Positions 6,318-49,800 of a stretch of 64,000 nt of DNA are shown here, in pieces. The DNA is from an uncultured Actinomycetes bacterium (GTDB lineage Bacteria; Actinomycetota; Thermoleophilia; Gaiellales; Gaiellaceae): positions 45,066 through 109,065 of the forward strand of contig CAWDGK010000003.1 of the NCBI GenBank assembly GCA_963801855.1. The letters are read 5' to 3'. Under the pieces are notes generated by a model. The model was not told the origin of the DNA, searched no databases, and saw only the letters and a program-made list of their open reading frames with translations. Each line of letters starts with the position of its first letter. Positions within the stretch are counted from its first letter, which is position 1. The translations under genes were made by a program, and so were the position numbers.

Positions 6318-7574
6318 CTAGAGGCGCGCGGTCTCGACGGGCTCGGGTTCTCGTTGCGGCCTGACCGAGACCTGTGATCCGGTGTCCAGGCCGCGGGCAA
6401 GCAGGAGAGCCACGACCGCCGCCACCGCCGAGAGCGCTCCTGCAATCGCCCAGACCGCACGCGGGCCGAGCAGGTCGGTGAGCGGCCCGGACGCGACCAT
6501 GCCGATTCCGAGCACGACGTAGTTCGAGCTCATCAGGAGCGTGAAAGCCCGGCCGCGGAGCTCGTCCGGTGCCCCTCGCTGGACGAAGAGCGCGTTGCAG
6601 ACCACGGCGGCGCCGTTTCCCGTTCCGAGGACGATGACGCAGAGCGCGGCGATCCAGACGTTCGGCGAGGCTGCAGCCCCGACCATGCCGACGGCGACGA
6701 GGGCGATCGACGTCGCGTAGACGGTTGCGATCGCACGCTGTTCGAGCAGCGACCCGGCCAAGAGGCTCCCGAATGCCAGGCCGATGCCTGTGGCGCCGAC
6801 GAGCAGGCCGTAGCCGAAGTCGCCGGCGCCGAACGCTTCCTTGGCGAGCACGACCTCCGCGACGTTGACGCAGGCGCTCGCCAGCATGATCACGTTCCAG
6901 ACGGTGAGGACCGTGAGGAGAGCGCGGGAGCCTCGGACGAGCGCGAAGCCGTCCGCGAGATCGCGCCAGTAGCCGCGGCCGATCGCCGGCGCAGCCTGCA
7001 GCAGGCGATCCGGGATGCCGGCGAGCAGCGCCGCCGAGACGAGGAACGTGACCGAGTTGATCCAGTAGGCCGCGTCCGGACCGGTCGCCGCGACGAGGAT
7101 TCCGCCAATCACCGGCCCGATGGCCCACGCGAGATTCTCGATCGTCTGCAGAAGCGAATTCGCCTGAGGGAGATCCTCGTCCGGCAGGAGGTTCGGAAGC
7201 CCGGCGTAGAGCGCCGGCCGGAAGAATCCCGTTGCGAAACCGGCCACGGCCGCGAGGGCGACGATCGCCGCAGGCTCCTCAGCGAATGGCAGGGCGGCAA
7301 AGATCGCGACTCGCAGAAGGTCGGAGGCGATCATCAGGCGCCGCCGGGGGAGGCGGTCGACGAGGGAGGCGGCCGCAACTCCGATCAGGATCGCGGGGAG
7401 GAAGTCTGCGATCAGGAGCGCGCTGACCCACACCGCAGACTGGGTGCGGTCGTACACGTCGATCGTGAGGGCGACGAACGCGAGCCACGTTCCGAACGCC
7501 GAGCCGACCGTCGCGAGCGCGAGCAGGCGAAAGCTCTGGGCTTCCCGCAAGAGCGTGACCTGTCGGTTCAGCAA
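6318..7574 (-). CDS. MFS transporter (12-TM type, efflux-like)
   Basis: 418 aa, hydrophobic throughout, with the MFS loop motif LVDRLPRRRLM between TM2 and TM3. Confidence 0.8.
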   Translation of the reverse strand: MLNRQVTLLREAQSFRLLALATVGSAFGTWLAFVALTIDVYDRTQSAVWVSALLIADFLPAILIGVAAASLVDRLPRRRLMIASDLLRVAIFAALPFAEEPAAIVALAAVAGFATGFFRPALYAGLPNLLPDEDLPQANSLLQTIENLAWAIGPVIGGILVAATGPDAAYWINSVTFLVSAALLAGIPDRLLQAAPAIGRGYWRDLADGFALVRGSRALLTVLTVWNVIMLASACVNVAEVVLAKEAFGAGDFGYGLLVGATGIGLAFGSLLAGSLLEQRAIATVYATSIALVAVGMVGAAASPNVWIAALCVIVLGTGNGAAVVCNALFVQRGAPDELRGRAFTLLMSSNYVVLGIGMVASGPLTDLLGPRAVWAIAGALSAVAAVVALLLARGLDTGSQVSVRPQREPEPVETARL

Positions 7575-7639
7575 TCGTTCCCTCTACGGCAAACGCTAGC
7601 GCCGCGATTGCGCCAGGAAGCCAAATTCACTCGTTCGAG

Positions 7640-8777
7640 TTAGGTCCTGGCGACACTCATGACGCGACCGAGCGCCTCGGAGAAGAACGCGTTGTCCTCG
7701 GGGGATCCGACGGTGACCCGAATCGCCCCCGGGGCGCCGAAGCCGGCCGTCGGACGCACGATCACGCCCTCCTGGAGAAGCTGCTCGAACAGCGGCCGCG
7801 AATCAGAGCCGACCTCGGCGAACACGAAGTTGGCGACGGCCGGAGTCACCGGGTCGAGACCGCTCGCCCGGAGCGCTTGCTCGATCGCCGGACGGCCTTC
7901 GGCGTTGAGCCGGCGGCGGCGCTCCAGCTCGGCGGCCGCGCCGGGCGCTTCGAGGCTCGCGAGGGCGCAGGCCTGCGCGGGCGTCGTGATGTCGAATGCC
8001 CGCCGGACCTTCCCGATTGCGCGTCACGAGCTCTGCCGAACCGACGCCGTAGCCCACGCGGAGCCCGGCGAGCCCGTAGATCTTCGAGAACGTCCGCAGC
8101 ACGATCACGCGCCGCCCACCCTTCACGTACTCCTCGATTCCGTCCGCGTAGGCACCATCGTCGACGTACTCGAGGTAGGCCTGGTCGAGCACGGTGACCA
8201 CGTGTTCCGGGACCGTGTCGAAGTAGAGATCCAGCTCCTCGCGGGTGTTCATCGTGCCGGTGGGGTTGTTCGGGTGGCAGACGTAGACGAGCTTCGTCCG
8301 CTCGGTGACCGCGGCGAGCATCGCGTCGAGGTCGTAGCGGCCGTCCGCGAGCGGAATCGTGCGCGCGACGGCCCCGAGCTTCTTGGCCCCGATCACGTAG
8401 CTCGGGAAGCTCGGCCAGCCGCACACGATCTCGTCGCCCGCGTCGAGCGAGATCTGGGACAGGGCGTCGACGATGCCGTCGGCTCCGGCGCCGAGCGCGA
8501 TCTCCTCGAGACGAACGCCGTGCCGCTCGGCGAGCGCGGCGCGCAGGCGGTAGGCACCACCGTCCGGGTACCGGTTCAGCTCGGGCCCGACGGCCGCGAG
8601 CGCCTCGAGCGCCTCCGGGAACGGGCCGAACGGCCCCTCGTTCGACGCAAGCTTGACGACCCGCTCGAGCCCGAGCTCACGCTGGACCTCCTCCACGGGC
8701 TTGCCGGGCTCGTACGGGACGAGGTCACGGACGGCGGGCTTGAAGAAGCTGTCCGCGATCTCGGCAAGCGACGCCAC
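7640..8777 (-). pseudogene. hisC: Histidinol-phosphate aminotransferase with one frame disruption near 8030
   Basis: ORF 7803..8777 carries the class II aminotransferase core (NPNNPTG-type HPNNPTGT, and the PLP lysine in FSKIYGLAGLRVGYG). After ...SAELVT it goes out of frame. Removing one nucleotide (GTG ACG [C] GCA ATC GGG) restores AIGKVRRAFDITTPAQACALASL...VTPAVANFVFAEV, which joins ORF 7640..7849. Confidence 0.85.
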
Positions 8778-8787
8778 GGCGCGGAAT

Positions 8788-9297
8788 CTACTGAACCGTG
8801 TAGGCCATGAGGATCGCGTCGAGGTACTCGGAGCCTCGGCGATAGTGAGCCCTCCTCAAACCCTCCTGCTGGAACCCGAACCGCTCGTAGAGGGCGATGG
8901 CGGCCTCGTTGTGCGGAAAGACGTGGAGCTCGAGCTTCCGCACAGCGGCCGCGCGCGCCCACTCGACGGCGGCGTCCAGCAGCGCGTTCCCGATCCCCCG
9001 GCGCCGGTGGGCCGCGGCGACCATGAGGCCGAGATCCGCAACGTGCCTGCTGGCCGGATGCGGGTCGCGGCCGAGGGAGAGCCGTCCCACGAGGCCCTCC
9101 GGCAGCTCCGCGACGAACACCGCAGCGTCGTCGTAGCGGCGCAACGCTCGCAGGAAGCGCCGCTCCTCGCCCGGCGAACGCCACGCGCCGTCGGAGATGA
9201 GCCAACCCTCGGGCTCGGACGCGACGGCTTCGGCGAGCGCCACGAGCGCCCCCGCGTCGCCGGGCTGCGCTCGCCTGACGACGGCCCGCTCAGCCAT
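8788..9297 (-). CDS. GNAT family N-acetyltransferase
   Basis: From MAERAVVRRAQPGD. It has the acetyl-CoA motif RRRGIGNALL. The ATG at 9297 overlaps the ggt stop codon by 8 nt. Confidence 0.8.
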   Translation of the reverse strand: MAERAVVRRAQPGDAGALVALAEAVASEPEGWLISDGAWRSPGEERRFLRALRRYDDAAVFVAELPEGLVGRLSLGRDPHPASRHVADLGLMVAAAHRRRGIGNALLDAAVEWARAAAVRKLELHVFPHNEAAIALYERFGFQQEGLRRAHYRRGSEYLDAILMAYTVQ

Positions 9298-10861
9298 CGA
9301 CGACGATCCCGTGGCCGCCCCGGCGCGGGTCTCCCGCGGCGGCCAGCTCGCCGTCGGGCCGCATCTCGACGGCGGCGGCCCCGCCGAAGTAGAGGTTGCG
9401 GCGACGCCATGCGACGACGTCATACCCGCGGCGCTCCAGCTCCTCCAGCTCCTCCGCGTCGGACCCTCCCTCGCAGTGGACATGCCCCTCGTCCAGGTGG
9501 ACGCGCGGACGGCTGATCGCCTCCTCGACGGTGAGGCCGTGGCCGAGCACGTTGACGACGATCTGGAGGATCGCGCCCCGCAGCCGAGCGGAGCCCGCAC
9601 TCCCGACGACGAGGCGTGGACGCGCATCCCGAAGGACGATCGAGGGCGCCATCAGGCTCGACAGGCGACCCCCTGGCGTCTGCCGCCGACGAGCCAGATT
9701 GAGGTGGTGCTCACCGAGCATGTTGTTCAGGTGCACGCCGGTCCCCGGCACGACGACGCCCGAGCCCGAGCCGGTCGAAGCCGTCAAGGAGGCGGCGTTG
9801 CCGTCTGCGTCCACCACCGAGATGTGCGTCGTTCGCGAGGGCTCTGGAGGCTCGCGCAGCGCGCGGCCGAGACCTTGGCCGAGCCGCTCGACCGCCGCCC
9901 CGACTCGTTCCTCGCCGCACAGGCTGTCCGTAAGGCCACCGCGGTAGAGAGAGCGCGCGAAGTCGCCACCGCGGGCGACCGTCTGCTCGTGCATGACAGC
10001 GATGAGACGTTCGATCGCTCCGGCGGTTCCGGGCCCGCCCCCGAGTCCGGCCCGGTCGAGGAGCAGCAACCCATACGCAATGAGAACGCCGCCCGAGGAC
10101 GGGGGTGGGTTCGAGATGAAGCGGTCTCCGAGAAAGCCCACGTCGATCGGCCGCCGCCAGATCGCTCGGTACCGGCGGAGGTCTTCGCGCGTCAACGGGC
10201 CGCCTTCCGCGCGTATGTGCGTGGTGAGCCGGTCGGCGATGTCGCCCTCGTAGAACGGCGCGGCTCCCTCGGCCGCGAGCAGTTCCATCGTCGAAGCGAG
10301 ATCGCTCATCTTCAGGTTGTCTCCGGCAGCGAGGCGTTCGCCGTCCGGGCCGTAGATCGCTCGCCCCGAATCGGTGTGGCGCAGGATGGTGTCCAGAATC
10401 GCGTGCAGGTAGCCCTGCTCGCGCGTCAGCACGACCCCGTTCCGGGCCAGGTCAATGGCGGGCACGAACAGCTCGGCCCACGGAACGCGCCCGTACGCCC
10501 GGTGCGCCGTCTCGAGACCGGAGACCATCCCTGGCACCGCCGCCGAGGCCACGCCGATCCCGAACGCCTGGGTTGTCGAGCTGTCGAAATCGACGTCGGT
10601 CCTCTCCATCTCTCTGATCGCCCGGGTTCCCAGGCCTTCCCCTGGCACCGCGACGAAGAAGTCGAGCAGTCGGGAATGCCCGTCCCGGGCCCGGTGGACG
10701 AGGAGGAACCCTCCTCCCCCCGGGCCTGTGAGCGGGCTCTCCGCCACCCATGAGGTGAATGCCGCCGCGAGACACGCGTCGACGGCGTTGCCGCCTGCGG
10801 CGAGAATCTGGGCGCCCGCCTCGGCCGTCAGCGGGTGACCGGCTGCGATCGCGCCCTTCAC
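9290..10861 (-). CDS. ggt: Gamma-glutamyltransferase
   Basis: 523 aa. It has the autoprocessing/catalytic Thr region TTHISVVDADGNAASLT and the motif GSGSGVVVPGTGVHLNNMLGE. Confidence 0.9.
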   Translation of the reverse strand: MKGAIAAGHPLTAEAGAQILAAGGNAVDACLAAAFTSWVAESPLTGPGGGGFLLVHRARDGHSRLLDFFVAVPGEGLGTRAIREMERTDVDFDSSTTQAFGIGVASAAVPGMVSGLETAHRAYGRVPWAELFVPAIDLARNGVVLTREQGYLHAILDTILRHTDSGRAIYGPDGERLAAGDNLKMSDLASTMELLAAEGAAPFYEGDIADRLTTHIRAEGGPLTREDLRRYRAIWRRPIDVGFLGDRFISNPPPSSGGVLIAYGLLLLDRAGLGGGPGTAGAIERLIAVMHEQTVARGGDFARSLYRGGLTDSLCGEERVGAAVERLGQGLGRALREPPEPSRTTHISVVDADGNAASLTASTGSGSGVVVPGTGVHLNNMLGEHHLNLARRRQTPGGRLSSLMAPSIVLRDARPRLVVGSAGSARLRGAILQIVVNVLGHGLTVEEAISRPRVHLDEGHVHCEGGSDAEELEELERRGYDVVAWRRRNLYFGGAAAVEMRPDGELAAAGDPRRGGHGIVVDG

Positions 10862-10871
10862 GGCGCCCCGC

Positions 10872-12257
10872 TCAGCTCTGGAGGAACGAGGGCGGTTCGA
10901 GCGTGTCGCCGCCCGTCTCCGTCCGCGCCACGAACGATCGAGACCCGCCGCGCTGACCGACGCCGGTGACGATCACCGTCACCCAGACCTGGCCCTCGAG
11001 CCGCTCGTCGACGGTCGCGCCGAAGATGATGTTGGTGTCGTCGACCGAGGCTCCACGGATGACCTCCGCCGCCTCGTTCACCTCGTAGAGCGAGAGGTCG
11101 TTGCCGCCGGCAATCGAGAGCAGGATCCCCTTCGCGCTGACGAGCTCGGTGTCGACGAGGGGCGACCGCATGGCGCGCTCCGCCGCCTCGACGGCTCGGT
11201 TCTCGCCGGTCGCGAAGCCGATGCCCATGAGCGCCGTCCCGGCGCCGCTCATGATCGTTCGGACATCCGCGAAGTCCACGTTGATCAGGCCCGGCTCGGT
11301 GATCAGGTCGCAGATCCCCTGGACGCCCTGGCGCAGCACGTCGTCGGCGATCCGAAATGCGTCGAGCATGGACGTCTTCTTGTCGAGAACCTCGAGGAGG
11401 CGCTCGTTCGGGATCACGATCACGGTGTCGCACGCTTCTCTCAGCGTGTGGACGCCCTGCTCCGCCTGCGAGCGCCGCTTGGTGCCCTCGAAGCGAAACG
11501 GCATCGTCACGATCCCGACCGTGAGCGCGCCGACCTCGCGTGCGATGCGCGCGACGACCGGGGCGGCCCCTGAGCCGGTCCCGCCACCCTCTCCGGCGGT
11601 GACGAACACCATGTCGGAGCCCCGGAGGGCCCGCTTGACCTGGTCGTAGGCCTCCTCCGCGGCGCGTCGCCCGATGTCCGGCTCCGCCCCGGATCCCAGC
11701 CCGCCCGTCAGCTCCCGCCCGATGTGGATCTTGACCTCTGCGTCGCTGAGGGCGAGCTGCTGGAGATCGGTGTTCACAGCCACGAACTCGACGCCCGAGA
11801 TGCCGGCGTCGATCATCCGGTTGACAGCGTTCAGTCCGGCGCCGCCGACGCCGACGACGCGAATGACGGCGAGGTAGGCAGAGTCGGCCTGCGGGGCGCG
11901 ATGGAGCCGCGGAGGCGGCTCCGGAAGCGGCTCGAGCAGGCGAGCGATACCGCGGTCGGAGGGCTGCTCGCGCGCATGGACCGGCGTGGAGGGCGCCGGG
12001 GCCCTGGGCGGCGCAGGCTTGTGGACGGGCTCGGGGGCCGATGGTGCAGGCGCACGGTCGGCGCGGTCGGGCACCTCCGGCTCCGGCTCGGGCGCGGGCG
12101 CGACCTCGAGCTTTGGCGGCGGATGCTCGACGGTCTCCTCGAGCGGTTCGCCGGGGAGCGTCTTCCCTTCCTTCTCGGCCTGCTTCTGTGCTGCTTCGGT
12201 CGCCCGGAAGAGCTCGGCGAGCGGGCCCTCACGCATGCTTGCGCGCTTTCGCGCCAT
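10872..12257 (-). CDS. ftsZ: Cell division protein FtsZ with a ~125 aa Pro/Glu/Ala-rich N-terminal extension
   Basis: It has [15 protein letters not shown], the tubulin signature [11 protein letters not shown], and the C-terminal peptide [10 protein letters not shown]. The ATG at 12257 is preceded by AAGGAGG (12264..12270) with a 6 nt spacer. Confidence 0.92.
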
Positions 12258-13110
12258 TGAGCACCTCCTTCGCCAGGTCGCGGTACGCCGCCGCCGCGGT
12301 GCCGGTCGGGTCGTACTTCAGGACGGAGCTGCCCTTCACAGGCGCTTCCGCGTAGCGCACGGTCTTCTTGATGCGCGTCTTGAAGACGAGCTCGCCGAAG
12401 TTCTCCTGGAGGATCTCGACGGCTTCCCGTGCATGCAGCGTCCGCCCGTCGTACATCGTCGGGAGGATCCCCTGGATTCCCACGTCGGGATTCAGGTTCT
12501 CGCGGATCATCGTCAGCGTGTTCTCGAGCTGGACGAGCCCACGCAGCGAGAGGTACTCGCACTGGACAGGGACGATGACTCCGTTCGAGGCCACGAGCGC
12601 GTTGATCGTCAGCAGTCCGAGCGACGGCGGCGTGTCGATCAGGACGAAGTCGTACCGATCCTTGACCGCGTTCAACGCCTTCTCCAGCGCTCGCTCGCGC
12701 CCGATCATGCTCGAGAGCGCGAGCTCCGCCCCCGCGAGGTCGATCGACGACACGGCGAGATCGACCTCCGAGTGCTGGATCACCTGGTCGATCGGGAGCC
12801 GGTGCACGAGGACGTCGAACATCGAGCGCTCGATCTGATCCGGGTTGAACCCCTGGCTCATCGTCAGGTTCCCCTGGGGGTCCATGTCGACGATCAGGAC
12901 GCGGTAACCCTCCTCCGAAAGCGCGACGGCGAGGTTCAGCGTGGAGGTCGTCTTCGCCACACCGCCCTTCTGGTTGGCGAAGGCGATGACCCGGGCATCG
13001 CGCGGCACGTCCGGCTCCGGAGGGGGCTCGGGCGGAGGAACGGCGACCTCCTCGGGAGCACCGTCGTCCGGCTCGCCCGGGGGGCGCGTGAAGAGACCTG
13101 CAAGACGCAT
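12229..13110 (-). CDS. ParA/Soj/MinD-family ATPase (deviant Walker A)
   Basis: It has [31 protein letters not shown] and a Pro-rich N-terminal ~45 aa. Its 3' end overlaps the ftsZ start by 29 nt. Confidence 0.9.
12264..12270 (-). promoter_or_regulatory. Shine-Dalgarno box (AAGGAGG) for ftsZ, embedded in the 3' end of the parA-like gene
   Basis: The reverse complement of 12258..12272 is cgAAGGAGGtgctca, followed directly by ATG. Confidence 0.7.
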
Positions 13111-13212
13111 CAGCAGCCCATCGTTCTGTTTGGGGCCGGAGTGTCCTGCACAAACTCAGTGTGCCGGAAAACCCGGACTGCGCCAGCATCGGCGACTTCA
13201 ATTTTCGCGGTG

Positions 13213-13467
13213 CTAGCGGGCCAAAATCGCCACCTCCTCCGTTTCCGCCTCCAGGGCGGCTCGACAGCCGGCGAGCGCCGCCACGGCTCCACAGGGCTCG
13301 GGCTCGGCACGAAGCCAGTTCTCGGCGTCGCGAACAAGAGCGCGGAGCTCGCCCAGCAACTCGGCCGACGGGGCTTCAGCCCGGTCGAGAGCCTCGATGC
13401 GATCGAGTCGCCTGAGCACTGCGCGTGCCTCGTCCATGCCTCGAACGTACTTGCGTCCGGCGCGCAT
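13213..13467 (-). CDS. Small hypothetical protein (helical, acidic)
   Basis: 84 aa ORF in the same orientation, directly upstream of the parA-like gene. The composition is not of the Arg/Pro shadow type. I recognise no motif, and the start is uncertain (M1 or M11). Confidence 0.4.
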   Translation of the reverse strand: MRAGRKYVRGMDEARAVLRRLDRIEALDRAEAPSAELLGELRALVRDAENWLRAEPEPCGAVAALAGCRAALEAETEEVAILAR

Positions 13468-13495
13468 GTCTGGAACGGATCTGTGCCTAGAGAGG

Positions 13496-14755
13496 CTAAA
13501 ACGCGCCGGCTGCGGCGACCGGCTCGAGCGGTACCGCGGGCTTCGCGCGCAGGCCGAGCAGGGTCTCGTCGAGCGTCTTCAGGAGCTCGCGGCGGTCGCC
13601 ATGCTCGAGCACGGCTACGAGGGAGCGCCGCACGAGATCCGCAGTCACGGACGCTGCATCGCCCGCGGCCAGCAGTCGAAGCCGCGCCAGGAGCGCCGCC
13701 GCCTCGCGGGGAGTCTCCCCGAGGACGGATGCCGCGCGAAGCGAGGCTGCAAAGACGCCGTCGCCGCCGCCGAGCAGCGACCCGAGCGATCCGCGGAGCT
13801 GCTCCGAGGCGAACGGGTCGTCCTGGAAGAGCGAGAGCTCCCATCGGTCGAGGGCCTCGCCGAGCTCGCGGTCGCCGTCGGCCAGCGCCAGCCGCTCGCG
13901 CAGGCGAAGCGCTCGCTCGGCCCTGAGCGAGTCCAGGCGCACGGGCTCACCGGGAGGAGGCGTGCCGGCGATCGGGAGAACAGGGCGAATGCCATAGGGA
14001 CGCCAGTCGAGCCGCTCGAACAACACAGGCCCGGCGGCGATCGGTCCGGCGGTCGCAAGCCGCAGAGCGGTGACCGCGTCGGCGATCTCGCCCGGCGCAT
14101 CCGGAGGCGCCACCGCGACGCCGTCCCCGCCGAGATCCGCCTCGAGCTCGAGGACGCAGAGGCGGTCGGGCTCACGCTCGAAGCCATCCGGGAGCAACCC
14201 ACCGGCCTGCGGCCAGTGCGCCGCGAGCTCTCCCGAGGCCACATGGCGGATCTGCACTCCGCCCCCGAGCTCGAGAGGGCCTCCGATCGAGATGCCGACG
14301 AGCGGCGCGATGGCCCCGTAGGCGCGATGCGATCCGAAGAGCGACTCCTCGAACCCCGCGTAGGCCCGCTCGAAGGCGTCGTCGTCCCAGTCGAACCCTC
14401 CACAGCCCTCGGCCGTCTCGGCGAGGAGTGGAAGCAGCACCGTCTGCAGCAGCGCGTCCCGAGAGCTCGGGCGGCCGCTCGAGTGCGCTCGGGAGAAGAT
14501 CGCAGCGGCCGGCTCGCGCTCCAGCTCCGCCAGAGCCGGCTGCGCATCGGCCAGCGCGGCGAACCGGCCTGCACGAGCGTCGAGAAAGGGCTTCACGAGC
14601 GGCCTGTACTCGTAAAGGGTCGGCCGGCCCACGGACTCGTGCTCCTCGAACGAGAACGGGACGTCGCCGCCCTCGTCCAGTTCGTGCGAGACCGCGGCGA
14701 AGGCGCCGAGGCAGAAGCCGCGGAGCGCCTGGTGGAGGGTTGGTGAGCGAGCCAC
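13496..14755 (-). CDS. Hypothetical protein (~420 aa)
   Basis: This is the coding-looking part of ORF 13496..15265, beginning after the nei stop at 14764. I placed the start at GTG 14755 (VARSPTLHQALRGF...). I recognise no domain. Confidence 0.55.
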   Translation of the reverse strand: MARSPTLHQALRGFCLGAFAAVSHELDEGGDVPFSFEEHESVGRPTLYEYRPLVKPFLDARAGRFAALADAQPALAELEREPAAAIFSRAHSSGRPSSRDALLQTVLLPLLAETAEGCGGFDWDDDAFERAYAGFEESLFGSHRAYGAIAPLVGISIGGPLELGGGVQIRHVASGELAAHWPQAGGLLPDGFEREPDRLCVLELEADLGGDGVAVAPPDAPGEIADAVTALRLATAGPIAAGPVLFERLDWRPYGIRPVLPIAGTPPPGEPVRLDSLRAERALRLRERLALADGDRELGEALDRWELSLFQDDPFASEQLRGSLGSLLGGGDGVFAASLRAASVLGETPREAAALLARLRLLAAGDAASVTADLVRRSLVAVLEHGDRRELLKTLDETLLGLRAKPAVPLEPVAAAGAF

Positions 14756-14763
14756 CCTGCCGC

Positions 14764-15528
14764 TTACGCGCCGGGTAGCCGCACTCCTCTCTCGCCGGGC
14801 TGGCAGGTCGGGCACCAGTACGCGGTTCGATTCGCGTCGCCCTGCCCCCGAGAGCGGACCGGGGCACGGCAACGGGGGCAGGGTCGCCCGGCTTTTCGGT
14901 AGATCGAGCGCTGCTCGCGGCCGGAGTCGACCGACCGCCGCATGAGTCGGGCCGCCTCGTCGAGGACGGCGCGGATCTCCTCGTCCGTCGTGTCTGAAAG
15001 CCGGCGCCAGGGCGAGACGCCTGCTCCCCACAGTGCCTCGGCCTTCCAGAGGTTCCCGATGCCGGCGACGAGGCGCTGGTCGAGGAGTGCGTCGCCGAGC
15101 TCGCGGCCCTGGTCGATTCGGCGGAAATTGGAGACCATGCGGTCGAAGTCGGGGGGCCGAGCGAGGATGTCCGGCCCCAACCGGCGCACGGCACGCCTGT
15201 TGAGCTCGAGCACGGGTCCTCCCCAGAGCACCGCTTCTCTCCCGCTGCCGCGGAGCACGAGCCACGGGCGCCCGTGGGTGACCGAGCCAGGCTCCCGGAC
15301 GGTCCAGCGTCCGCTCATGCGGAGATGGCTGCGCAGGACGAGGCCGCCCTCGAAGCTCAGGATCAGGTTCTTCCCGATCGCCTCGACCCGCTCGAGTCGC
15401 CTGCCGTCGAGTTGCTCGGCGACCCCGGTTGCTGCAGCCCGCGGGTTCGGACTTTCGACTGCGACCGTCTCCCCCACGAGGACCTGGAGGCGGCGGGCGG
15501 CGCGATGGAGTGAGTCACCCTCGGGCAT
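14764..15528 (-). CDS. nei: Fpg/Nei family DNA glycosylase, Nei2-like
   Basis: It has the N-terminal MPEGDSLHRAA, the H2TH region LLDQRLVAGIGNLWKAEAL, and the C-terminal zinc finger CPRC...CPTC. Confidence 0.88.
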   Translation of the reverse strand: MPEGDSLHRAARRLQVLVGETVAVESPNPRAAATGVAEQLDGRRLERVEAIGKNLILSFEGGLVLRSHLRMSGRWTVREPGSVTHGRPWLVLRGSGREAVLWGGPVLELNRRAVRRLGPDILARPPDFDRMVSNFRRIDQGRELGDALLDQRLVAGIGNLWKAEALWGAGVSPWRRLSDTTDEEIRAVLDEAARLMRRSVDSGREQRSIYRKAGRPCPRCRAPVRSRGQGDANRTAYWCPTCQPGERGVRLPGA

Positions 15529-15973
15529 GCTCTGGATTGTGAACGAGCGAGGTCTTCACCCGGCGGTTGCGGGCGCAGCGGCGGCCATGGCGTGGGCGCT
15601 GCTCGAGCCGGTCGACCGGCGCGTCTTCCGTTGCGACTACTCGGATGTCGCCCTCCTCGGCAAGGCCGTGACCCGAGGCCCGCTCTGGCGACCGGCCGGG
15701 CTCGCCCTGCATGCGCTGAACGGCGCGGTGTTCGGCCTCGCCTTCGAGGAGGCGCGACGCCGTCTGCCCTTGGAGAAGAGGCGGCTCGCCCTCACCATGG
15801 CGCTCGCGGAGCACGTCGCCCTCTACCCGCTCTCGTACTTCGTCGACCGCTATCACCCCGCGCGCGGTGAGGAGGGGGTCCCGCCCCTCCTCACCAATGG
15901 GCGCGCGTTCGCCCAGGCAACCGCGCGGCACGCGCTCTTCGGCGTGCTCCTGGGGCGAATGGCTCGCGACTAG
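15527..15973 (+). CDS. Small hypothetical membrane protein
   Basis: This is the coding-looking C-terminal part of ORF 14942..15973 (MLWIVNERGLHPAVAGAAAAMAWALLEP...). It contains hydrophobic helices. The start is uncertain (ATG 15527 or the internal in-frame ATG encoding the M of MAWALLEP, ~60 nt downstream). Confidence 0.45.
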   Translation: MLWIVNERGLHPAVAGAAAAMAWALLEPVDRRVFRCDYSDVALLGKAVTRGPLWRPAGLALHALNGAVFGLAFEEARRRLPLEKRRLALTMALAEHVALYPLSYFVDRYHPARGEEGVPPLLTNGRAFAQATARHALFGVLLGRMARD

Positions 15974-17468: not shown

Positions 17469-20400
17469 CTAGGGGCGAAGCACCGCTCGGCGAGGACCGG
17501 CCGTGAAGCCGGCCTCCACCAGCAGCTCCATCGCGTCCGTCTCGCCGATGGGCTCCCCGTCGAAGCGCTCGACCGCGAGGCGCTTTGCTCCGCGGCGGCT
17601 CTTCACGTGTCCGACCAGGGCGGAGAGCGCCGGTCGCAGCCACTCGGGATCAGGGTCGCGCAGAGGGACGAGCGTTTTTCCTCCACGCTCGACGAAGAGC
17701 GCTGCCTCGCCACCGAGCAGGACGACGTAGGCGCCGGCGACTCTCGCCGCTCGGGCCCCCGCCCGCTTCGGCCAGGGCACTGCGGCGCCGTAGGGCTGGG
17801 CCGGATCCGCTGCCGCAAGGACCTTGACCTCGAGCGTGTCGTCCTCCCTCGGTCGCAGCTCGCGAATCCGCTCGACGGCCCCGCCGAGCGCGAACTGCGC
17901 TCCGCCGAGGCCCTCGACGAAGTAGCCGCGGCGGCAGAGCCCGAGCGTCTCGAGCGCCTTCAACTCCCCGTAGACGGCGGAGTACCCTCCGGCGATCCCC
18001 TCCGCCCGGACGCCGTCACGGGTCACGATTCCCTGGCGCTCCAGCAGGAGCTCGGCGAGCGCCCGCGGATCCCGGTCGCCGACGAACAGGCGGTCGGTGA
18101 GCGACCAGCGACCCTGGGTGGCGGTGATCGCCGTCGCCCGACGGCGTGAGAACCGACGGGGCCGGCGCTCCGGCTTCGGCACCCCGTACCGACGACCGGC
18201 CCGGAGTGGCGTCCAGGCGTCGTTCGTGGCCTCTCCCGCCCACACGAGATCCCAGAGCGCAGGCAGGGCCTGCTCGGCATCCAGACCCGTCGCAGCCAGG
18301 AGGTCGAACCAGAACTCCGCGCTCTTCGAGAGCGCCTCGCGCAACCGGTCGTGCACCTCGCCCTCGGGCGCGTCCGTCCCATCCGGCTTGCCCAGAACGG
18401 AGGCGTCCTCGCGGAAGTACACGGCTACGCGGTCGAGCCCGGCGCCGATCCAGACGAGCTCCCCGGTCGCGCACAGCTGGTCGAGTTGCGCCGGCGCGTA
18501 GTTGGGCACCCGGCGCGGCAGGACCTCGGACTCCCAGAGCGCCACCGGCAGCGCAAGCCCCTGGAGCGGAACGAGCGCCTCGCGGAGCGTCGCCCGCCGG
18601 TCGATGCCCTGCCAGCCCGGCAGGAACCGGGCGAGGGCAACCTGCTCGACGGGCTCGACCTCCTTCCGAAGCGCCGCAAGCGACGCCCGCCTGATCCGGC
18701 GGAGAACGTCCGGGTCGCACCACTCCCGCTCGGTGCCACCGGGCCGCAGCTCTCCCCGCACCAGCTTTTCCTCCCGCTCGAGCGCGACGAGCTCCGCGTC
18801 GGCTCGCGCGCCCTCGATCCCGAACCGCGTGGCAGCCTCGCCCGTCGTGAAGGGGCCGCGGCCTCGCGCGAATCGTGCGAGCAGGGAGCGAAGAGGCTGC
18901 TCGGTGCTCTCGAGGAACGCGTCCGGCAAACCGCTCGGCGGCATGACGCCGAGCGCGTCCCGGTAGCGGCCCGCGTCCTCGGCGGCGATCAGCCGCTCCT
19001 CGCCGGCGACGCGCACGCGAACCGCCCGGCGCTCGGCCTCGAGCACCGCGGCAAACGCCTCGTCGAACTCGCCCGGCCGCTGGTCACCGCGTCGCAGCAG
19101 TAGGTCGTGAAGCCCGTCGGGGTCCTTCGCCTGGCCGGTCAGGCTCTGCTCCACCTGATCGAGCGCGCCCGGGTCGAGCAGGTCGCGTAGCTCCTCCTGG
19201 CCGAGCAGCTCGCGCAGGAGATCCTTGTCGAGCGACAACGCCTGCGCCCGCCGCTCGGCGGGAGGCGTGTCGTCCTCGTACATGTACGTCGCGATGTAGT
19301 CGAAGAGGAGCGAGGACGAATACGGCGACGCCGACGCGCTCTCGACGTCGACGAGGTCGATCTGCCGCGTCTTGATCCCGTGCAGCAGCCGCTTCAACGC
19401 CGGGAGGTCGAAGACGTCCTGGAGGCACTCCCGGAAGGTCTCGAGCATGACCGGAAACGAGCCGTACTTCTTCGCCACCTGGAGGAGGCTCTGGGCCTTC
19501 AGCCGCTGCTGCCAGAGCGGTGTGCGCTCACCGGGCCGGCGCCGCGGGATCAGGAGCGATCGCGCCGCGTTCTCGCGGAAGCGGGCGCCGAAGAGCGCGG
19601 TGCCGCCGAGCTCGCCCATGACGAGCTCGTCGATCTCGTCCGGGTCGAGGACGATCTGCTCGGTCGGAGGCGGCTGGTCCGGAGTCGGGGAAGTGGAGCG
19701 CGATGCCGTCGTCCGACCAGAGGACGGAGGCGTCGACTCCGAGCGACTCCTGGAGCCGCGCGGAGACGGCGAGCGCCCACGGGGCGTGCACCCGGGCGCC
19801 GAACGGCGTCAGGACGCAGACGCGCCAGTCGCCGATCTCGTCCTTGAAGCGCTCGACCACCACCGTGCGGTCGGATGGGACGACCCCGGTCGCCTGTTCC
19901 TGGTCGCGGATGAAGGTCATGAGGTTCTTCGCGGCGAGCGGATCGAGCGAATAGTCGTTCTGCAGTCGTTCGCCCGCGACGTCGTCGGAGAGCGATGCAA
20001 GCTCGCGGGAGGCCTTGCCGATCGCCTCGCCGAGCTCGTAGGGCCTCCCCGGCCCCTCGCCCTTCCAGAACGGAATCGCACCCGGAACACCGGGTGCCGG
20101 GGAAACGAGCACGCGGTCTCGTGTGATCTCCTCGATCCGCCAGGTGGAGGCGCCGAGCATGAACGTCTGGCCGGCGCGCGCCTCGTAGACCATCTCCTCG
20201 TCGAGTTCCCCGACCCGGCCGCCGCCGTCGACGAGGTGGACGCCGAAGAGGCCGCGGTCGGGGATCGTGCCGGCGTTCGTGACCGCGAGGCGCGCTGCCC
20301 CTCCCCGGCCGCGGATGACGCCGGCCGTCCGGTCCCAGACGATGCGGGGCCGCAGCTCGGCGAACTCGTCGGACGGGTACCGGCCGGCCAGCATGTCGAG

Positions 20401-21742
20401 CACGTTCTCGAGCTGGACGCGCGAGAGGTCGGCGAAGGGATAGGCGCGCTTGACGAGCCCGTGCAGCTCGTCGACCTCGATCTCCTCCTGCGAGGAGATC
20501 GCGACGATCTGCTGCGCCAGGACGTCGAGGGGGTTCCGAGGGATCTGCGTCTCCTCGATCGCGCCTTCCTTCATGCGCTTGACGACCACGGCCGACTCGA
20601 GCAGGTCGGCCCGGAACTTCGGGAAGACACGGCCCTTGGAGACGGAGCCGAGATCGTGGCCCGCGCGCCCGATCCGCTGGAGGCCGCGCGCGACCGACTT
20701 CGGGGACTCGACCTGGACGACGAGGTCGACGGCGCCCATGTCGATCCCGAGCTCGAGCGACGAGGTGGCGACGAGGCACGGGATCTCGCCGCGCTTGAGC
20801 AGCTCCTCGACCTCGAGCCGCTGCTCCCGGGCCAGCGAGCCGTGGTGGGCGCGCGCAATCTCCTTCTCCGCCAGTTCGTTGAGCCGCAGCGCCAGGCGCT
20901 CGGCAAGGCGGCGGTTGTTGACGAAGACGATCGTCGAGCGGTGCTGCTCGACCAGCTCGAGGAGGCGCGGGTAGATCGAGGGCCAGATCGACTGCGACGG
21001 AGCTTCGCCCCCGGTCCCGAGGATGTCGGTGATCTCCGCGTTCACACCGGGCTCCCGCATGTCCTCGAGCGGCACCACGACCTGGACGTCGAGCTCCTTC
21101 GAGCGGCCGGCGTCGACCAGCTCGATCGGACGGCCCCCTGCGACGAACTTGCCGATCTCCTCCATCGGGTCGCTGGGTCGCGGAGAGCCCGATCCGCTGG
21201 AACGGCTCGTCTGTGAGCCGCTCGAGCCGCTCGATCGTCAGCGCCAGGTGGGCGCCGCGCTTCGTCCCTGCGACGGCGTGCACCTCGTCGAGGATCAGCG
21301 TCCGGACCCCGGCCAGGGTCTCACGGGCCTTCGAGGTCAGCATCAGGTAGAGCGACTCGGGCGTCGTGATCAGGAGGTCGGGCGGCTCGCGGAGCAGCTT
21401 CTGCCGCTCCTTCTGCGGTGTGTCGCCCGTGCGGACCGCGACCTTCACCTGCGCCTGCAGTCCGGCAAGCGGCCCGCGAAGGTTCCGCTCGATGTCGTAG
21501 TTGAGCGCCTTGAGCGGCGAGACGTAGACGAGGCGCGTCCCCTCCCCCGGCTCCGCGACGAGCCGGTCGAGCCCGTAGAGGAAGGCCGCGAGCGTCTTTC
21601 CGGACCCTGTGGGAGCCTGGATCAGCGTGTGCGCGCCGGAGGCGATCTTCGGCCAGCCGAGCTCCTGCGCGGGGGTCGGACCGTCGAACGTCTGCTCGAA
21701 CCAGGTGCGCGTCCCGGGGCTGAAAACGGAGAGCGCGTCCAT
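17469..21742 (-). pseudogene. lhr: Lhr-type large ATP-dependent DEAD/DEAH helicase, split into three frames
   Basis: ORF 19550..21742 carries APTGSGKT, DEVH and SAT (RIGLSATQRP). The sequence continues in ORF 19528..21165 (MEEIGKFVAGGRPIELVD...) after one extra nucleotide at about 21166. It changes frame again near 19690 into ORF 17469..19619 (ELGGTALFGARFRENAARSLLIPRRRPGERTPLWQQR..., the Lhr C-terminal domain). Confidence 0.88.
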
Positions 21743-45518: not shown

Positions 45519-46754
45519 TCACGAGTCGAACCGCAGATCTTGGTGGTGGAGCCGGTGCCCGAGCTTGTCCCGCTTCGTCTCGAGATAGCGACGGTTCTCA
45601 TCGTTCGGGGGCGTCTCGATCGGAACCTGCTCGACGACCGTGAGCCCGAAGCCCTCGAGACCGGTGATCTTCTTCGGGTTGTTCGTGAGGATCCTGATCG
45701 TCGTCAGCCCGAGGTCGGCAAGGATCTGGTTTCCGATCCCCCAGTCCCGGGCGTCGGCCGGGAATCCGAGCTCGAGGTTCGCCTCGACCGTGTCGAGCCC
45801 GCCCTCCTGCAGCTCGTACGCCTTCAGTTTGCTCAGGAGCCCGATGCCGCGCCCCTCCTGGGCCATGTAGAGCAGGACACCCCGCTCCTCTGCGCCGATG
45901 CGCTCGAGCGCCTCGGTGAGCTGCTCGCCGCAGTCGCAGCGAAGCGAGTGGAAGACATCGCCTGTCAGGCACTCGGAGTGAACTCGCACGAGTACGCCGT
46001 CCGCGCCGTCGACCTCTCCTTTCACGAGAGCGACGTGGTGCTTGCCGGTCAGCGTCTCGCGGAACGCGATCGCCTGAAAATCGCCGTGGGCGGTAGGGAG
46101 CCGCACCGAGACGGTCCGCTCGACGAGCTTCTCTGTCCGCCGGCGGTACTCGATCAGGTCGGCGACGGTGACCATCTTGACCTCGTGGCGCCGGCAAAAC
46201 TCCCGGAGGTCCGGAACCCGCGCCATCGTGCCGTCGTCGTTCATCACCTCGCAGACGACCCCGGCGGGGATCAGACCGGCGAGGCGGGCCAGGTCGACCG
46301 CAGCCTCCGTCTGCCCCGTCCGCTCGAGGACTCCGCCCGCGCGAGCGCGCAACGGAAAGATGTGGCCGGGCTGCACCAGGTCGTGCGGGCCCTTGTTGGG
46401 GTCGATCGCAGTCTGGATCGTGCGCGAGCGGTCAGCGGCGGAGATACCGGTCGTCACGCCTTCCCGAGCCTCCACCGAGACCGTGAAGGCGGTCTGGAGC
46501 GGCGCCTCGTTGTTCTCGGCCATCGGTCGAAGCGCGAGCTCGTCGACCCGGTCCGGAGTCAGGCAGAGGCAGATCAGGCCGCGGGCGTGCGTCGCCATGA
46601 AGTTGATCGCCTCCGGCGTCGCGAACTGTGCGGCGATCGTGAGGTCGCCTTCGTTCTCGCGGTCTGCCGCGTCGACGACGACCACGAACTTGCCCTCGCG
46701 AATGTCGTCGATCGCCTCTTCGATGGTTGCGAAAACGGTGTCGGCCGTGGTCAT
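45519..46754 (-). CDS. ribBA: Bifunctional 3,4-dihydroxy-2-butanone-4-phosphate synthase / GTP cyclohydrolase II
   Basis: From [38 protein letters not shown] (the DHBPS half) to [24 protein letters not shown] (the GCHII half). The longer ORF N-terminus is shadow-like. Confidence 0.92.
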
Positions 46755-46848
46755 GGTCACCGACTGATCGTAACCAGCCGCGCAGGTTCGGTCGCGCTCG
46801 GGTAGCCTCGACCCCGGTTCTCGCTCTACGCCGTCCCACCTCTGATTG

Positions 46849-49800
46849 ATGTCTCCCCGTCGCCCGGGTACGTCTCGCCGAGGCATCGCCTTCGGCGCAC
46901 TTGCGCTGCTCGTCGCGCTCTGCACCGGACTCGCAGGCGGCTCGCTGCAGGCGGGCGCCGCAACGCCGGGGCTCGTCGGCGCCTACGCGCTCAGCGAGGG
47001 AACCGGCCTCCAGACGGCCGACTCATCTGGAAGCGCCAACGGAGGCACGCTCTCGGGTGCGACCTGGGCTGCGGCGGGAAAGTACGGAGGCGGCCTCGCG
47101 TTCGACGGCACGAACGACTGGGTCACGGTCCCCGACGCCGCCTCACTCGACCTCACGACCGGCCTGACCCTCGAAGCCTGGGTGCGGCCCACGACGAACT
47201 CGAGCTGGCGCACGGTCATGCTCAAGGAGCACGGCTCGACCCTCGCCTACGGGCTGTACAGCGCTGCCACGAGCAGCCGTCCCATGGGCGTCGTCCTCAC
47301 CGGCGGTAGCCAGCAGAAGCTCTCGGGGCCGACGGCGTTGACCCTGAACACCTGGACGCATCTCGCTCTCACGTACGACGGCGCCCAGATGCGCCTCTAC
47401 GTCAACGGAACGCAGCGGGCGAGCAAGGCGGTGACCGGCGCCGCCCCGAACTCGACCGGGGCCCTCCGGATCGGCGGCAACAACGTCTGGAAGTCGGAGT
47501 GGTTCAGCGGCAGCCTCGACGAGCTGCGCGTCTACAACCGGGCGCTCTCGGCGGCCGAGGTCCAGGCCGACATGAACTCCCCTGTGGGGCTGAGCGATAC
47601 CACGGCGCCGACCGCGCCGGGCAACCTGCGCCAGACGGCCTCCGCGCAGACGACGGCCACGATCTCCTGGGACTCGTCGACCGACAACATCGGCGTGCAG
47701 GGCTACGAGATCTTCCGCGGCACGACCTCGCAGGGTACGACGACGACGAACAACTGGTCGCTCACCGGCCTGCCGTGCAACTCCACGACGGCGGTGGGAG
47801 TCGAGGCGTTCGACGCGGCCGGTAACCGATCCTCACGATCAACCCTCACCGTTGCCACGACCTCGTGCGACACCGCGCCGCCGTCGGTCTCGATCACCAG
47901 CCCCTCAGGCGGAGCGACGGTGTCAGGCACCGTCCAGGTCTCGGCGTCGGCGGCCGACGACTCCGGAGTCGCCGGGGTCCAGTTCTTCGTCGACGGGGCT
48001 GCGGTCGGGCCGGAGGATCCGACGGCCCCGTACAGCTCCGACTGGAACACGGCGTCGGCCGGAAACGGCCCTCGCTCGCTGACTGCCGTCGCGCGAGACA
48101 CCTCCGGAAATCTCACGACGTCGTCCGCCGTCGGCGTTGACGTCGACAACGACACGGTCGCGCCCACCGTCGCCCTCACCGCACCGGCCGACGGAGCGAC
48201 GGTCACCGGCGTCGTCCAGCTCGCCGCGGACGCGAGCGACGACCGCGCCCTTGCCGGTGTCCGCTTTCGTCTCGACGGCATCAACCTCGGAGCCGAGGAC
48301 ACGACGGCGCCGTACTCGCTCTCCTGGGACACCGCCGGAGCAACCTCCGGGTCGCACTCGATCACCGCTTTCGCTCGCGACGCCGCCGGAAACACGAAGA
48401 CGTCGGCGGCCCGGACGGTCTTCGTCCAGAACGGGCTCAACACGGCGGACGCCTGGAAGAAAGTGACCGTAGGCCCCGGTTACGTGGACGCCTCGACGCG
48501 CACGCCGGTTCGCACCGCGGGAGGCTGGGTCTATCTCTTTGCCGCCGACGACACTGCTCGAGGCAACGGCGTCGGGCCGACGGTGATCCGCGCCTGGAAG
48601 GCAAACCGGCCCGGAATCCCGACCGCCTTCAGCGAGATGGACGGGGCGAACCGCCCGTCAGCCGCGACCGGGACCCTCCAGGTCCTCGGAAGCCCGGACA
48701 CCCGGCTCGATCGCAGCGGCATCGCCCACCTCGTCTACATGAACGAGTCGACCGACACGCTGAACTACAGGACGTTCTCGACGGTGACGAACACCTGGGG
48801 GCCGAACGAGGTGGTCGAGTCGGCGATCGGAATGGATTTCGACGGCAACACGACCTACAGGCGCGAGACGACGAACTCGATCGTCCTCGACGCGAACGAC
48901 GTCCCGCACATCGTCTACAAGTCCGGCTCGTCGCTCGTCCACCGGCATCGCACCGGCGGAACCTGGAGCGCCAAGGTGATCGTCGACACGCCTCCGGTGG
49001 GAACGCCGCGGCACTCGTCGCTCGCAGCCGATGCGCTCGGAAACCTCCACGTGACCTGGCTCCGCAGCGACTGGCTCGTGGCCTCGAATCCGCACCCGCA
49101 GATCATGTACCGGCGCCGCGGTGTCGACGGCGTCTGGGCGCCTGCCGAAGTGGCGGCCGAGACCGACGTCCAGACGAACGAGAACTCCGATCAGGGCCCG
49201 AGCATCGTCATCACGCAGAACGGGACGCCCCATGTCCTCTACGTCAGCGACCTCGGCGACAGCTTCGTCCAGACCGCCAATCGCACGAACGGCGTCTGGG
49301 TCTCGAACCACCCGCCTGTCGGAGTGTTCACCCACGCGCCTCAGATCTACGGGCAGTACAACGACATCTACGTCTTCCTCGGGCATGACCGGGCAATTCA
49401 CTTCGGCTACCTCTACAAGCTCAACGGCCAGCCCTGGGTGCCGTACGAGCGGCTCGACAGCACCGGCGACAACGACGGCTCGGGCTCGCCGCGCTGGGAT
49501 CCCATGCGAGAGCCGAATCCGGAGGTGATCGACACCACCTTCTACGAGGAGAACCTGGCCAACGACTCCCGGCGGCTGACGGAGCTCTACTACATGGCGG
49601 TTCTCCCGAGCGGCGGCCCCACAGACTCCGACCCTCCGACGACTCCCACCGATCTGACGCAGACGGATGCGACCGAGAACTCTCTGTCGATCTCCTGGAC
49701 TCCGTCGTCAGACGCAGTCGGCGTTGCGGGCTACGGGCTCTATCGCAACGGGTCGAGCGTGGGCTCGTCGTCGGTTCCGTCGGCGACGATCGGCGGTCTG

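Follow-up and report, generated by a model that had tools for sequence, protein, structure and literature searches.

The genes of ParA/MinD-type ATPases are usually encoded beside their cargo, and the cargo itself may contain the partner of the ATPase (PMC10241942). Partners which activate the ATPase have a short positively charged peptide at the extreme N-terminus which is followed by a disordered region (PMC7993993, PMC10241942). Division-site selection is an unsettled question in actinobacteria, which lack Min and Noc and in which the orphan ParA-like proteins PldP/Rv1708 and Rv3213c affect septum placement (PMC3989709, PMC10482377). Here we describe a parA-like gene that overlaps the cell division gene ftsZ on the minus strand of a 64-kb stretch of DNA (contig CAWDGK010000003.1, 70% G+C; the whole analysed stretch is called the window, and all coordinates refer to it). 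The source is a bacterium of the Gaiellaceae (Gaiellales, Thermoleophilia, Actinomycetota): its FtsZ is 81–100% identical over the full length to the 120 best database matches, and every organism-named one among these is a metagenome-assembled genome (MAG) of the Gaiellaceae. The overlap is conserved in the loci of this order, and FtsZ starts with a conserved basic peptide which co-occurs with the ParA. We slightly favour the reading that FtsZ would be the partner and cargo of a nucleoid-bound ParA via this peptide, a variant of the ParA/MinD mode of positioning the division site. The features of the gene pair are as follows.

13081–13110, minus strand: ParA N-terminal peptide, local variant of the Gaiellaceae consensus MGLxRLLPRP (from the ParA open reading frames of loci L001–L034)
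12229–13110, minus strand: parA-like gene, Soj-type deviant-Walker-A ATPase of 293 aa (Pfam AAA_31, 204.5 bits)
12946–12969, minus strand: deviant Walker A motif KGGVAKTT (ParA aa 48–55; K48, K53), from the translation, invariant in 35 orthologs
12814–12819, minus strand: ParA F98 and D99, matching the arginine-binding site (alignment to 8RAY_B)
12493–12741, minus strand: ParA segment with residues matching the ParB-peptide pocket, L130, L164, L166, I169, M201, and L206, and in addition D124 (alignment to 8RAY_B)
12264–12270, minus strand: Shine-Dalgarno box AAGGAGG of ftsZ within the parA codons for A-K-E-V, 6-nt spacing
12229–12257, minus strand: overlap of the parA 3′ end and the ftsZ 5′ end, 29 nt, from the sequence
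10872–12257, minus strand: ftsZ, 461 aa plus stop codon (TIGR00065, Pfam Tubulin and FtsZ_C)
12186–12257, minus strand: FtsZ N-terminal peptide (aa 1–24), candidate ParA-binding and ATPase-activating peptide, basic, helix-forming by prediction
11886–12185, minus strand: disordered Pro/Ala/Glu-rich N-terminal linker of FtsZ (aa 25–124), with a predicted local distance difference test score (pLDDT) of about 30
about 12120–12134, minus strand: linker motif (E/D)xTVEH(V/A)P(D/S)(F/W), TVEH at aa 42, in Gaiellaceae and not in deeper lineages
11892–11948, minus strand: linker motif R(Y/W/L)LEPLPExPPRLHR (aa 104–122), in Gaiellaceae and not in deeper lineages
10947–11885, minus strand: FtsZ GTPase core and C-terminal domain (aa 125–437; TIGR00065, Pfam)
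11568–11588, minus strand: tubulin signature GGGTGSG (FtsZ aa 224–230), from the translation
10875–10901, minus strand: conserved peptide LEPPSFLQS at the C-terminus, preceded by a C-terminal linker which is unusually short

In the PomXYZ system of Myxococcus xanthus the nucleoid-binding ParA-type ATPase PomZ, with PomX and PomY as its activators, positions the Z-ring. In PomX a peptide of 22 aa is joined with a disordered region rich in Ala and Pro and with a polymerising domain (PMC7993993), and this three-part layout matches the FtsZ of Gaiellales. However, in Gaiellales the polymer module is FtsZ itself, which gives two components instead of three plus FtsZ. Moreover, no homolog of PomX or PomY is found beside the Gaiellales pair, and the peptide sequences are unrelated.

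With respect to the ATPase, the pair resembles the Soj/ParA–ParB systems, as the Gaiellales protein is nearest to Soj-type ParAs (188–191 bits) and has retained the pocket for ParB as well as the arginines for DNA binding. The ParA-binding motif of M. xanthus ParB comprises residues 11–19 with the hydrophobic residues L11, L15, L18, and I19 around a central R/K13. The basic residue of this motif contacts Y81, E82, D110, and E117, and efficient activation requires two motifs side by side (PMC12462528). Like this motif, the FtsZ peptide is N-terminal, unstructured-to-helical, and has four hydrophobic residues together with basic ones (PMC12462528). In contrast, the Gaiellales locus is devoid of a parB or parS context, and the candidate partner is FtsZ. 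The FtsZ motif is shifted in register by one residue and contains Gly-Pro, and the Walker A motif reads KGGVAKTT instead of KGGVGKTT.

MipZ from Caulobacter crescentus is a ParA-like ATPase with DNA as its matrix and FtsZ as its direct target (PMC3989709), similar to what we suggest for Gaiellales. Nevertheless, MipZ depends on polar ParB, inhibits FtsZ through its core, and is not encoded together with ftsZ. The Gaiellales ATPase is also much closer to AAA_31 and Soj than to MipZ, as the secondary match to Pfam MipZ reaches 45.8 bits (cut-off 20.7), far below the 204.5 bits of AAA_31. To our knowledge, the FtsZ of Caulobacter has not been reported to carry a ParA-docking N-terminal peptide.

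Within the same phylum, the orphan ParA-like proteins PldP (Cg1610)/Rv1708 and Rv3213c/MSMEG_1927 are likewise Soj-like and have conserved DNA-binding residues. Minicells, septal foci, and the partial complementation of a min mutant tie such actinobacterial proteins to the placement of the division site (PMC3989709, PMC10482377). Unlike the Gaiellales gene, their genes are not located beside ftsZ, and the likeness to the Gaiellales ParA is stated here without implying orthology. The KGGVAKTT variant is shared by the ParA-like protein of Mycobacterium smegmatis with the structures 4PFS/5IF9, which we take to be an orphan of the Rv3213c/MSMEG_1927 type based on its length and on the Rv3213c sequence. 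We know of no report that the FtsZ proteins of organisms with PldP/Rv1708 or Rv3213c carry an N-terminal peptide of this kind.

In the MinCDE system as well, an ATPase of the ParA/MinD family governs the placement of the Z-ring, and the activator MinE works through a positively charged N-terminal stretch (PMC7993993). In contrast to MinD, the C-terminus of the Gaiellales ATPase lacks an amphipathic hydrophobic helix for membrane targeting, its scores for the MinD equivalogs are far below the cut-offs (TIGR01968, 52.5 vs. 212.9; TIGR01969, 84.1 vs. 201.75), and the scanned open reading frames of the window include no minC or minE. Structures of MinD reach only 57 bits against this ParA. The matrix of the Gaiellales ATPase is probably DNA and not the membrane. 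With respect to FtsZ, heterocyst-forming cyanobacteria provide a further parallel: their housekeeping FtsZ has a lineage-specific conserved N-terminal peptide that reportedly matters for function (PMC6175996). However, this peptide affects polymerisation, and no link to ParA is mentioned in the abstract (PMC6175996).

The parA–ftsZ pair in Gaiellales

A preliminary description, prepared by a model from the sequence alone, had proposed that ftsZ is translationally coupled to a ParA/MinD-family ATPase gene. As it stated, the ATG of ftsZ (12257–12255) lies 29 nt inside the 3′ end of parA, and an AAGGAGG box is embedded in the parA coding sequence. The TGA stop codon of parA is found at 12231–12229, and the box (12270–12264) is placed 6 nt before the ATG of ftsZ. 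For a conservation scan the FtsZ protein was compared to one genome per species and the best 80 of 586 candidate matches were analysed. Within this set, all 39 loci of Gaiellales/Thermoleophilia that include the 5′ end of ftsZ have the ParA gene directly upstream. Adjacency in relatives had been set beforehand as a check by which the pairing could be refuted; including the window, the overlap is kept in 40 of 40 loci. Its length is 29 nt in most of the loci and 20, 17, 14, 11, or 4 nt in the rest, and in nearly all of them the Shine-Dalgarno box has the same distance to the start codon. Independent gene calls on metagenome contigs of the ENA, one of them 1.08 Mb long, yielded the same overlapping gene pair with the same starts. 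The FtsZ proteins of the 40 ParA-linked loci are 51–100% identical. The deep lineages L036 and L039 share none of the examined flanking genes with the window (theirs code for, among others, a radical-SAM enzyme, methyltransferases, and an M48 peptidase), and solely the parA–ftsZ pair persists.

The FtsZ appears to be a genuine division protein. It scores 419.3 bits with the equivalog model TIGR00065 (aa 125–437; cut-off 295.2), 170.6 bits with Pfam Tubulin, and 106.5 bits with FtsZ_C. The translation contains the signature GGGTGSG and the C-terminal LEPPSFLQS, both already recognized in the preliminary description, as well as the T7 synergy loop NVDFAD at aa 326. With the FtsZ proteins encoded in dcw clusters of Paenibacillus, Coriobacteriia, and Solirubrobacteraceae its core shares 61–65% identity. 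The C-terminal peptide, (L/E)xPPSFL in the Gaiellales loci, is predicted to be the retained binding site for the anchor SepF or FtsA. The tail following the core comprises 22–41 aa in Gaiellaceae compared to 50–80 aa in most of the other lineages fetched. Thus the Gaiellaceae FtsZ, with a long disordered linker at the N-terminus and a short linker at the C-terminus (10875–10960), inverts the usual FtsZ layout.

The ftsZ gene had been described as lacking ftsQ, ftsA, and mur genes at its flanks, and parB, minC, and minE as lacking nearby. Among the open reading frames scanned across the whole window there is indeed no parB, minC, or minE, and besides ftsZ no mur, fts, mraZ/W, sepF, or divIVA gene, that is, no gene of the dcw cluster (for division and the cell wall). 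In 43 Gaiellales loci no dcw-type gene was detected by tblastn within 10 kb on either side of ftsZ; the queries were MurF, MraY, MurD, FtsW, MurG, MurC, FtsQ, PgeF, YlmE, SepF, and DivIVA regions from loci of Dietzia, Solirubrobacteraceae, and Acidimicrobiales. In a MAG of the Solirubrobacteraceae (L052) and in another MAG of the Thermoleophilia (L059), ftsQ is located immediately upstream of ftsZ, and both ParA and the N-terminal peptide are absent. Judged from the gene order, the housekeeping ftsZ has evidently moved out of the dcw cluster in Gaiellales, which amounts to an order-wide break-up of a normally conserved cluster. Downstream of the dcw-linked ftsZ of L052 there is a pair of genes (12637–15551), which we take to be the glycine-cleavage genes gcvPA/gcvPB, and homologs of this pair are found near parA–ftsZ on the opposite strand in L039 (4715–7590) and L042 (4533–7408), which belong to the deepest ParA-linked lineages. 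This shared gene pair may be a remnant of the ancestral neighbourhood in which the dcw cluster ended, and may hint at the rearrangement by which ftsZ was separated from it.

The N-terminal extension of FtsZ and the ParA-like ATPase

Overlooked in the preliminary description, an extension of ∼124 aa precedes the GTPase core of FtsZ, which starts at about aa 125. The extension begins with the peptide of 24 residues. Its pattern is found exactly once per locus, at the N-terminus of FtsZ, in 40 of 40 ParA-linked loci and in none of 37 loci of other lineages. Over 35 sequences the residues R5, M8, L13, L16, F17, and T20 are invariant and S7, R9, G11, and P12 nearly so, and the positions of R9 and R18 are always occupied by Arg or Lys. 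The peptide has a net charge of +2, with R3, K4, R5, R9, and R18 as basic residues. At the nucleotide level 13 of its 14 third codon positions vary without changing the amino acids, the GC content by codon position over the extension has a coding-like pattern when read in the frame of ftsZ, and the codons 96–132 contain no ATG, GTG, or TTG as an alternative start. Given this synonymous variation, the coding-like GC pattern, the lack of a start near the core, and a Shine-Dalgarno box serving M1, the peptide is translated, and purifying selection acts on it.

A prediction of the full-length FtsZ with AlphaFold2 yielded a helix at aa 12–31 and disorder at aa 31–122 (shallow alignment, mean pLDDT 54.6; used for the helix/disorder call only). 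In the linker, 27 of 100 residues are Pro, 14 are Ala, and 14 are Glu, and the length of the whole extension varies between loci from about 50 to about 190 aa. Thus the N-terminus of FtsZ has the layout described above for ATPase-activating partners, among them PomX, McdB, and the N-terminus of ParB, with a conserved basic N-terminal peptide followed by a disordered region, and as usual for the cargo of these ATPases FtsZ is encoded beside the ATPase and co-inherited with it, with an overlap in 40 of 40 loci.

A phmmer search with aa 1–36 against 1.84 billion representative proteins gave 346 matches, and by match position and length the best 150 of them look like FtsZ N-termini. No other protein family with the motif appeared among the inspected matches; 13 of them were read and turned out to be FtsZ N-termini or frameshifted calls of parA/ftsZ. 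With solved structures the peptide had only a chance match of 17 bits. Several metagenome proteins (P0155, P0213, P0251, and P0258) with an internal motif looked like natural fusions of ParA and FtsZ; these candidates were rejected as frameshifted gene calls from error-prone assemblies. Such apparent fusions in public protein sets could be mistaken for Rosetta-stone fusions.

The upstream gene had been assigned to the ParA/MinD family with the motif KGGVAKTT, and both hold, as AAA_31 scores 204 bits and the translation contains the motif. The best solved structures are the M. smegmatis orphan ParA-like protein 4PFS/5IF9 (203 bits), M. xanthus ParA 8RAY (191 bits), and Thermus thermophilus Soj (188 bits). 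With 123.1 bits the ATPase is below the cut-off of 180 for the NCBIfam family ParA_partition (NF041546), so that its family membership holds at the superfamily level only. Among the scanned open reading frames of the window no ParB-type gene adjoins this parA, and in every locus the overlapping downstream gene is ftsZ.

To locate the pocket residues, the ATPase was aligned to the crystal chain 8RAY_B of M. xanthus ParA, with the sites as defined in PMC12462528. The arginine-binding site has retained F98, D99, and D124 and thus three of its four residues. D77 falls at the position which carries the substitution D60A in the M. xanthus chain. R252 aligns with R238 of M. xanthus ParA, and the mutation R238E abolishes DNA binding in that protein (PMC12462528). 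In the sequence of the Gaiellales protein both DNA-binding arginines, R223 and R252, are kept, and it is predicted to be of the DNA-binding type. R223 (in MYDGRTL) presumably corresponds to R189 of Bacillus subtilis Soj.

The ATPase has an N-terminal peptide of its own, which a variable Pro/Glu-rich spacer separates from the ATPase core and which is absent in the deep lineages L039–L042. Its make-up with Leu residues around a central Arg resembles the motif by which ParB binds ParA, and it could be an auto-inhibitory or a localisation peptide.

Proposed mechanism and rival explanations

As the genes of ParA/MinD ATPases typically lie beside the cargo and the partner may be contained in the cargo (PMC10241942), we propose a mechanism in which FtsZ takes the role of the partner. 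In this mechanism ATP-bound dimers of ParA would sit on the nucleoid, and the FtsZ peptide would dock in the hydrophobic pocket of ParA that is normally used for ParB. FtsZ filaments would constitute a multivalent partner, with many peptides side by side on long flexible tethers like closed ParB clamps or PomX filaments; they would be tethered by ParA and would locally switch it off. Mutual tethering and activation of the ATPase could then place the Z-ring relative to the nucleoid, and the outcome might be either a positive positioning at mid-nucleoid as in PomXYZ or a nucleoid exclusion similar to MipZ or Noc. The contact between ParA and the peptide, the activation of the ATPase, the binding to the nucleoid, and the sign of the regulation, positive or negative, are what we infer from the sequences. 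With more reserve, and leaning rather against than for this wider proposal, we consider that the two proteins may form a minimal self-organising system in which FtsZ would be both cargo and activator and each subunit would carry its own ParA tag. Only polymerised FtsZ with paired tags would engage and switch off nucleoid-bound ParA dimers, and the ParA flux would carry the nascent ring towards mid-nucleoid or into the gap between nucleoids, so that neither Min, Noc, and MipZ–ParB nor a PomX/Y adaptor would be needed.

Gaiellales are abundant soil bacteria which have been little studied, and with Gaiella occulta a cultured member exists. As a central septum divides the cells of G. occulta (PMC6741124, Fig. 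1b), a system which places the septum at midcell is to be expected. The gene pair provides a directly testable hypothesis of a contact between ParA and FtsZ which is specified down to the residues. If true, the pair would be the simplest known system for Z-ring positioning, with two proteins and the nucleoid, and the first natural case in which a cytoskeletal polymer is positioned directly by a ParA ATPase via a fused activator peptide. Nature would then have grafted an activator peptide onto a new cargo, in the way suggested as a design principle for synthetic ‘minimal autonomous positioning systems’ (PMC10241942). The preliminary description regarded a dedicated ParA–FtsZ pair as a plausible and undescribed module for Z-ring positioning. 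The conserved overlap and the co-occurrence of a partner-type peptide with ParA support this idea, and in searchable open-access papers and preprints we found no account of the FtsZ of Gaiellales/Thermoleophilia or of an FtsZ with a ParA-partner peptide.

Several of our results weigh against FtsZ as the partner of ParA. No profile search ties the FtsZ peptide to ParB. The hydrophobic residues M8, L13, L16, and F17 and the basic residues R9/R18 are spaced one residue off the ParB arrangement L11-x-R13-x-L15-x-x-L18-I19, that is, the register is M-R-x-x-x-L-x-x-L-F in FtsZ and L-x-R-x-L-x-x-L-I in ParB. As far as the sequences tell, the peptide appears ParB-like in kind and not homologous. In the arginine-binding site of ParA, A131 takes the place of E117. 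The pocket and the DNA-binding residues are generic to Soj-like ParAs, so that they do not indicate FtsZ rather than ParB as the partner. The strong Shine-Dalgarno box inside parA means that the translation of ftsZ need not depend on that of parA. Finally, the linkage to ParA and the peptide of FtsZ probably arose once, and the co-occurrence in 40 of 40 loci therefore represents one maintained event and not 40 independent ones. For the FtsZ cores a midpoint-rooted neighbour-joining distance tree would fit a single split and origin of the ParA-linked form, which by itself is no proof of monophyly.

It is also conceivable that the two genes are merely co-expressed so that segregation and division are regulated jointly, with ParA serving chromosome segregation or another cargo (via ParB, ScpA, or another partner) and the FtsZ peptide being a membrane tether that replaces FtsA or a dock for a different divisome protein. 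This explanation, which we judge to be rather unlikely, is in line with a generic Soj-like ParA having an intact ParB-type pocket and with the mycobacterial orphan Rv1708, which binds ParB and ScpA (PMC10482377). A basic stretch followed by an amphipathic helix is also seen in membrane-targeting sequences, and an N-terminal tether would be conceivable given the unusually short C-terminal linker of FtsZ. However, the helix has conserved acidic or polar residues (E10/D, the mostly acidic E15, the invariant T20, and E21/D) and only a narrow hydrophobic stripe, which is more in keeping with a pocket in a protein than with the surface of a lipid layer. Moreover, the retained C-terminal peptide for binding of SepF or FtsA means that a route to the anchor already exists, and the peptide and ParA are never found apart in the 40 loci despite the complete turnover of the flanking genes.

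A further explanation is an accessory FtsZ with a specialised or non-division role, the essential ftsZ being part of a dcw cluster at another site of the genome. In its favour, our evidence comes from loci and not from whole genomes, and the scan comprises the best 80 of 586 candidates. Nevertheless, we regard an accessory paralog as very improbable. The equivalog score exceeds the cut-off by far, the T7 loop and the C-terminal peptide are intact, and the core has the above identity of 61–65% to the dcw-linked FtsZ of other taxa, which does not point to a divergent paralog, an alternative already raised in the preliminary description. Furthermore, the ParA-linked ftsZ is present in every Gaiellales assembly recovered, and among the best 80 of 586 matches none of these assemblies contributes a second ftsZ locus, though comparable dcw-type FtsZ proteins of other taxa entered this set. 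The frameshifted genes hisC and lhr of the window (see below) reveal an imperfect assembly, which could lend weight to an artefact such as a chance synteny in a single family or a mis-called start with the real FtsZ beginning near the core. The conservation across 40 loci, which stem from many different assemblies and sequencing technologies, speaks against this, as do the synonymous variation of the peptide with invariant amino acids, the coding-like GC pattern of the extension, the lack of an ATG, GTG, or TTG at the codons 96–132, and the choice of the same start by independent gene callers. Thus an artefact is effectively refuted. On balance, we continue to lean slightly towards a direct interaction of FtsZ with the ParA.

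Neighbouring genes and further observations

On the minus strand the gene pair is embedded in the following order of genes.

14764–15528, minus strand: fpg
13496–14800, minus strand: gene of a 434-aa protein
13213–13467, minus strand: 84-aa open reading frame
12229–13110, minus strand: parA-like gene
10872–12257, minus strand: ftsZ
9290–10861, minus strand: ggt
8788–9297, minus strand: GNAT acetyltransferase gene
7640–8777, minus strand: hisC, frameshifted
beyond hisC, minus strand: gene of a major facilitator superfamily transporter and meaB

Downstream of ftsZ, the preliminary description listed ggt, a GNAT gene, and hisC with gaps of 8–10 nt. The gaps between ftsZ and ggt and between the GNAT gene and hisC are 10 nt each; the GNAT gene, in contrast, overlaps ggt by 8 nt. 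An Rfam scan of the whole window, in which neither an FMN riboswitch nor any other family reached the threshold, and a promoter and terminator scan of 7400–13700 gave nothing usable.

The proteins of ∼434 aa (13496–14800) and ∼84 aa (13213–13467) are conserved between fpg and parA in Gaiellaceae and have no match in Pfam or NCBIfam. We considered both genes as members of the module and rejected them, as they lack a family match and as no tblastn homolog is found in the deep-lineage loci L036–L042; they are probably not part of the parA–ftsZ module.

The reading frame of hisC breaks near 8010, after ...GYGVGSAELVT; in relatives the gene is intact and codes for 378 aa. The frameshift is either an indel of the assembly or the mark of a pseudogene. 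Similarly, the helicase gene lhr (17469–21742, minus strand) is split into three overlapping frames (17469–19619, 19528–21165, and 19550–21742), and its relatives are single proteins of 1423–1424 aa. The broken reading frames of lhr add to the evidence for indel errors in the assembly.

In another part of the window, ribBA (45519–46925, minus strand) and a gene with a lumazine-binding domain (50815–51357, minus strand), probably the riboflavin synthase gene ribE, flank a gene on the opposite strand (46846–50826) which codes for a secreted LamG/Big_7/fn3 protein of 1326 aa.

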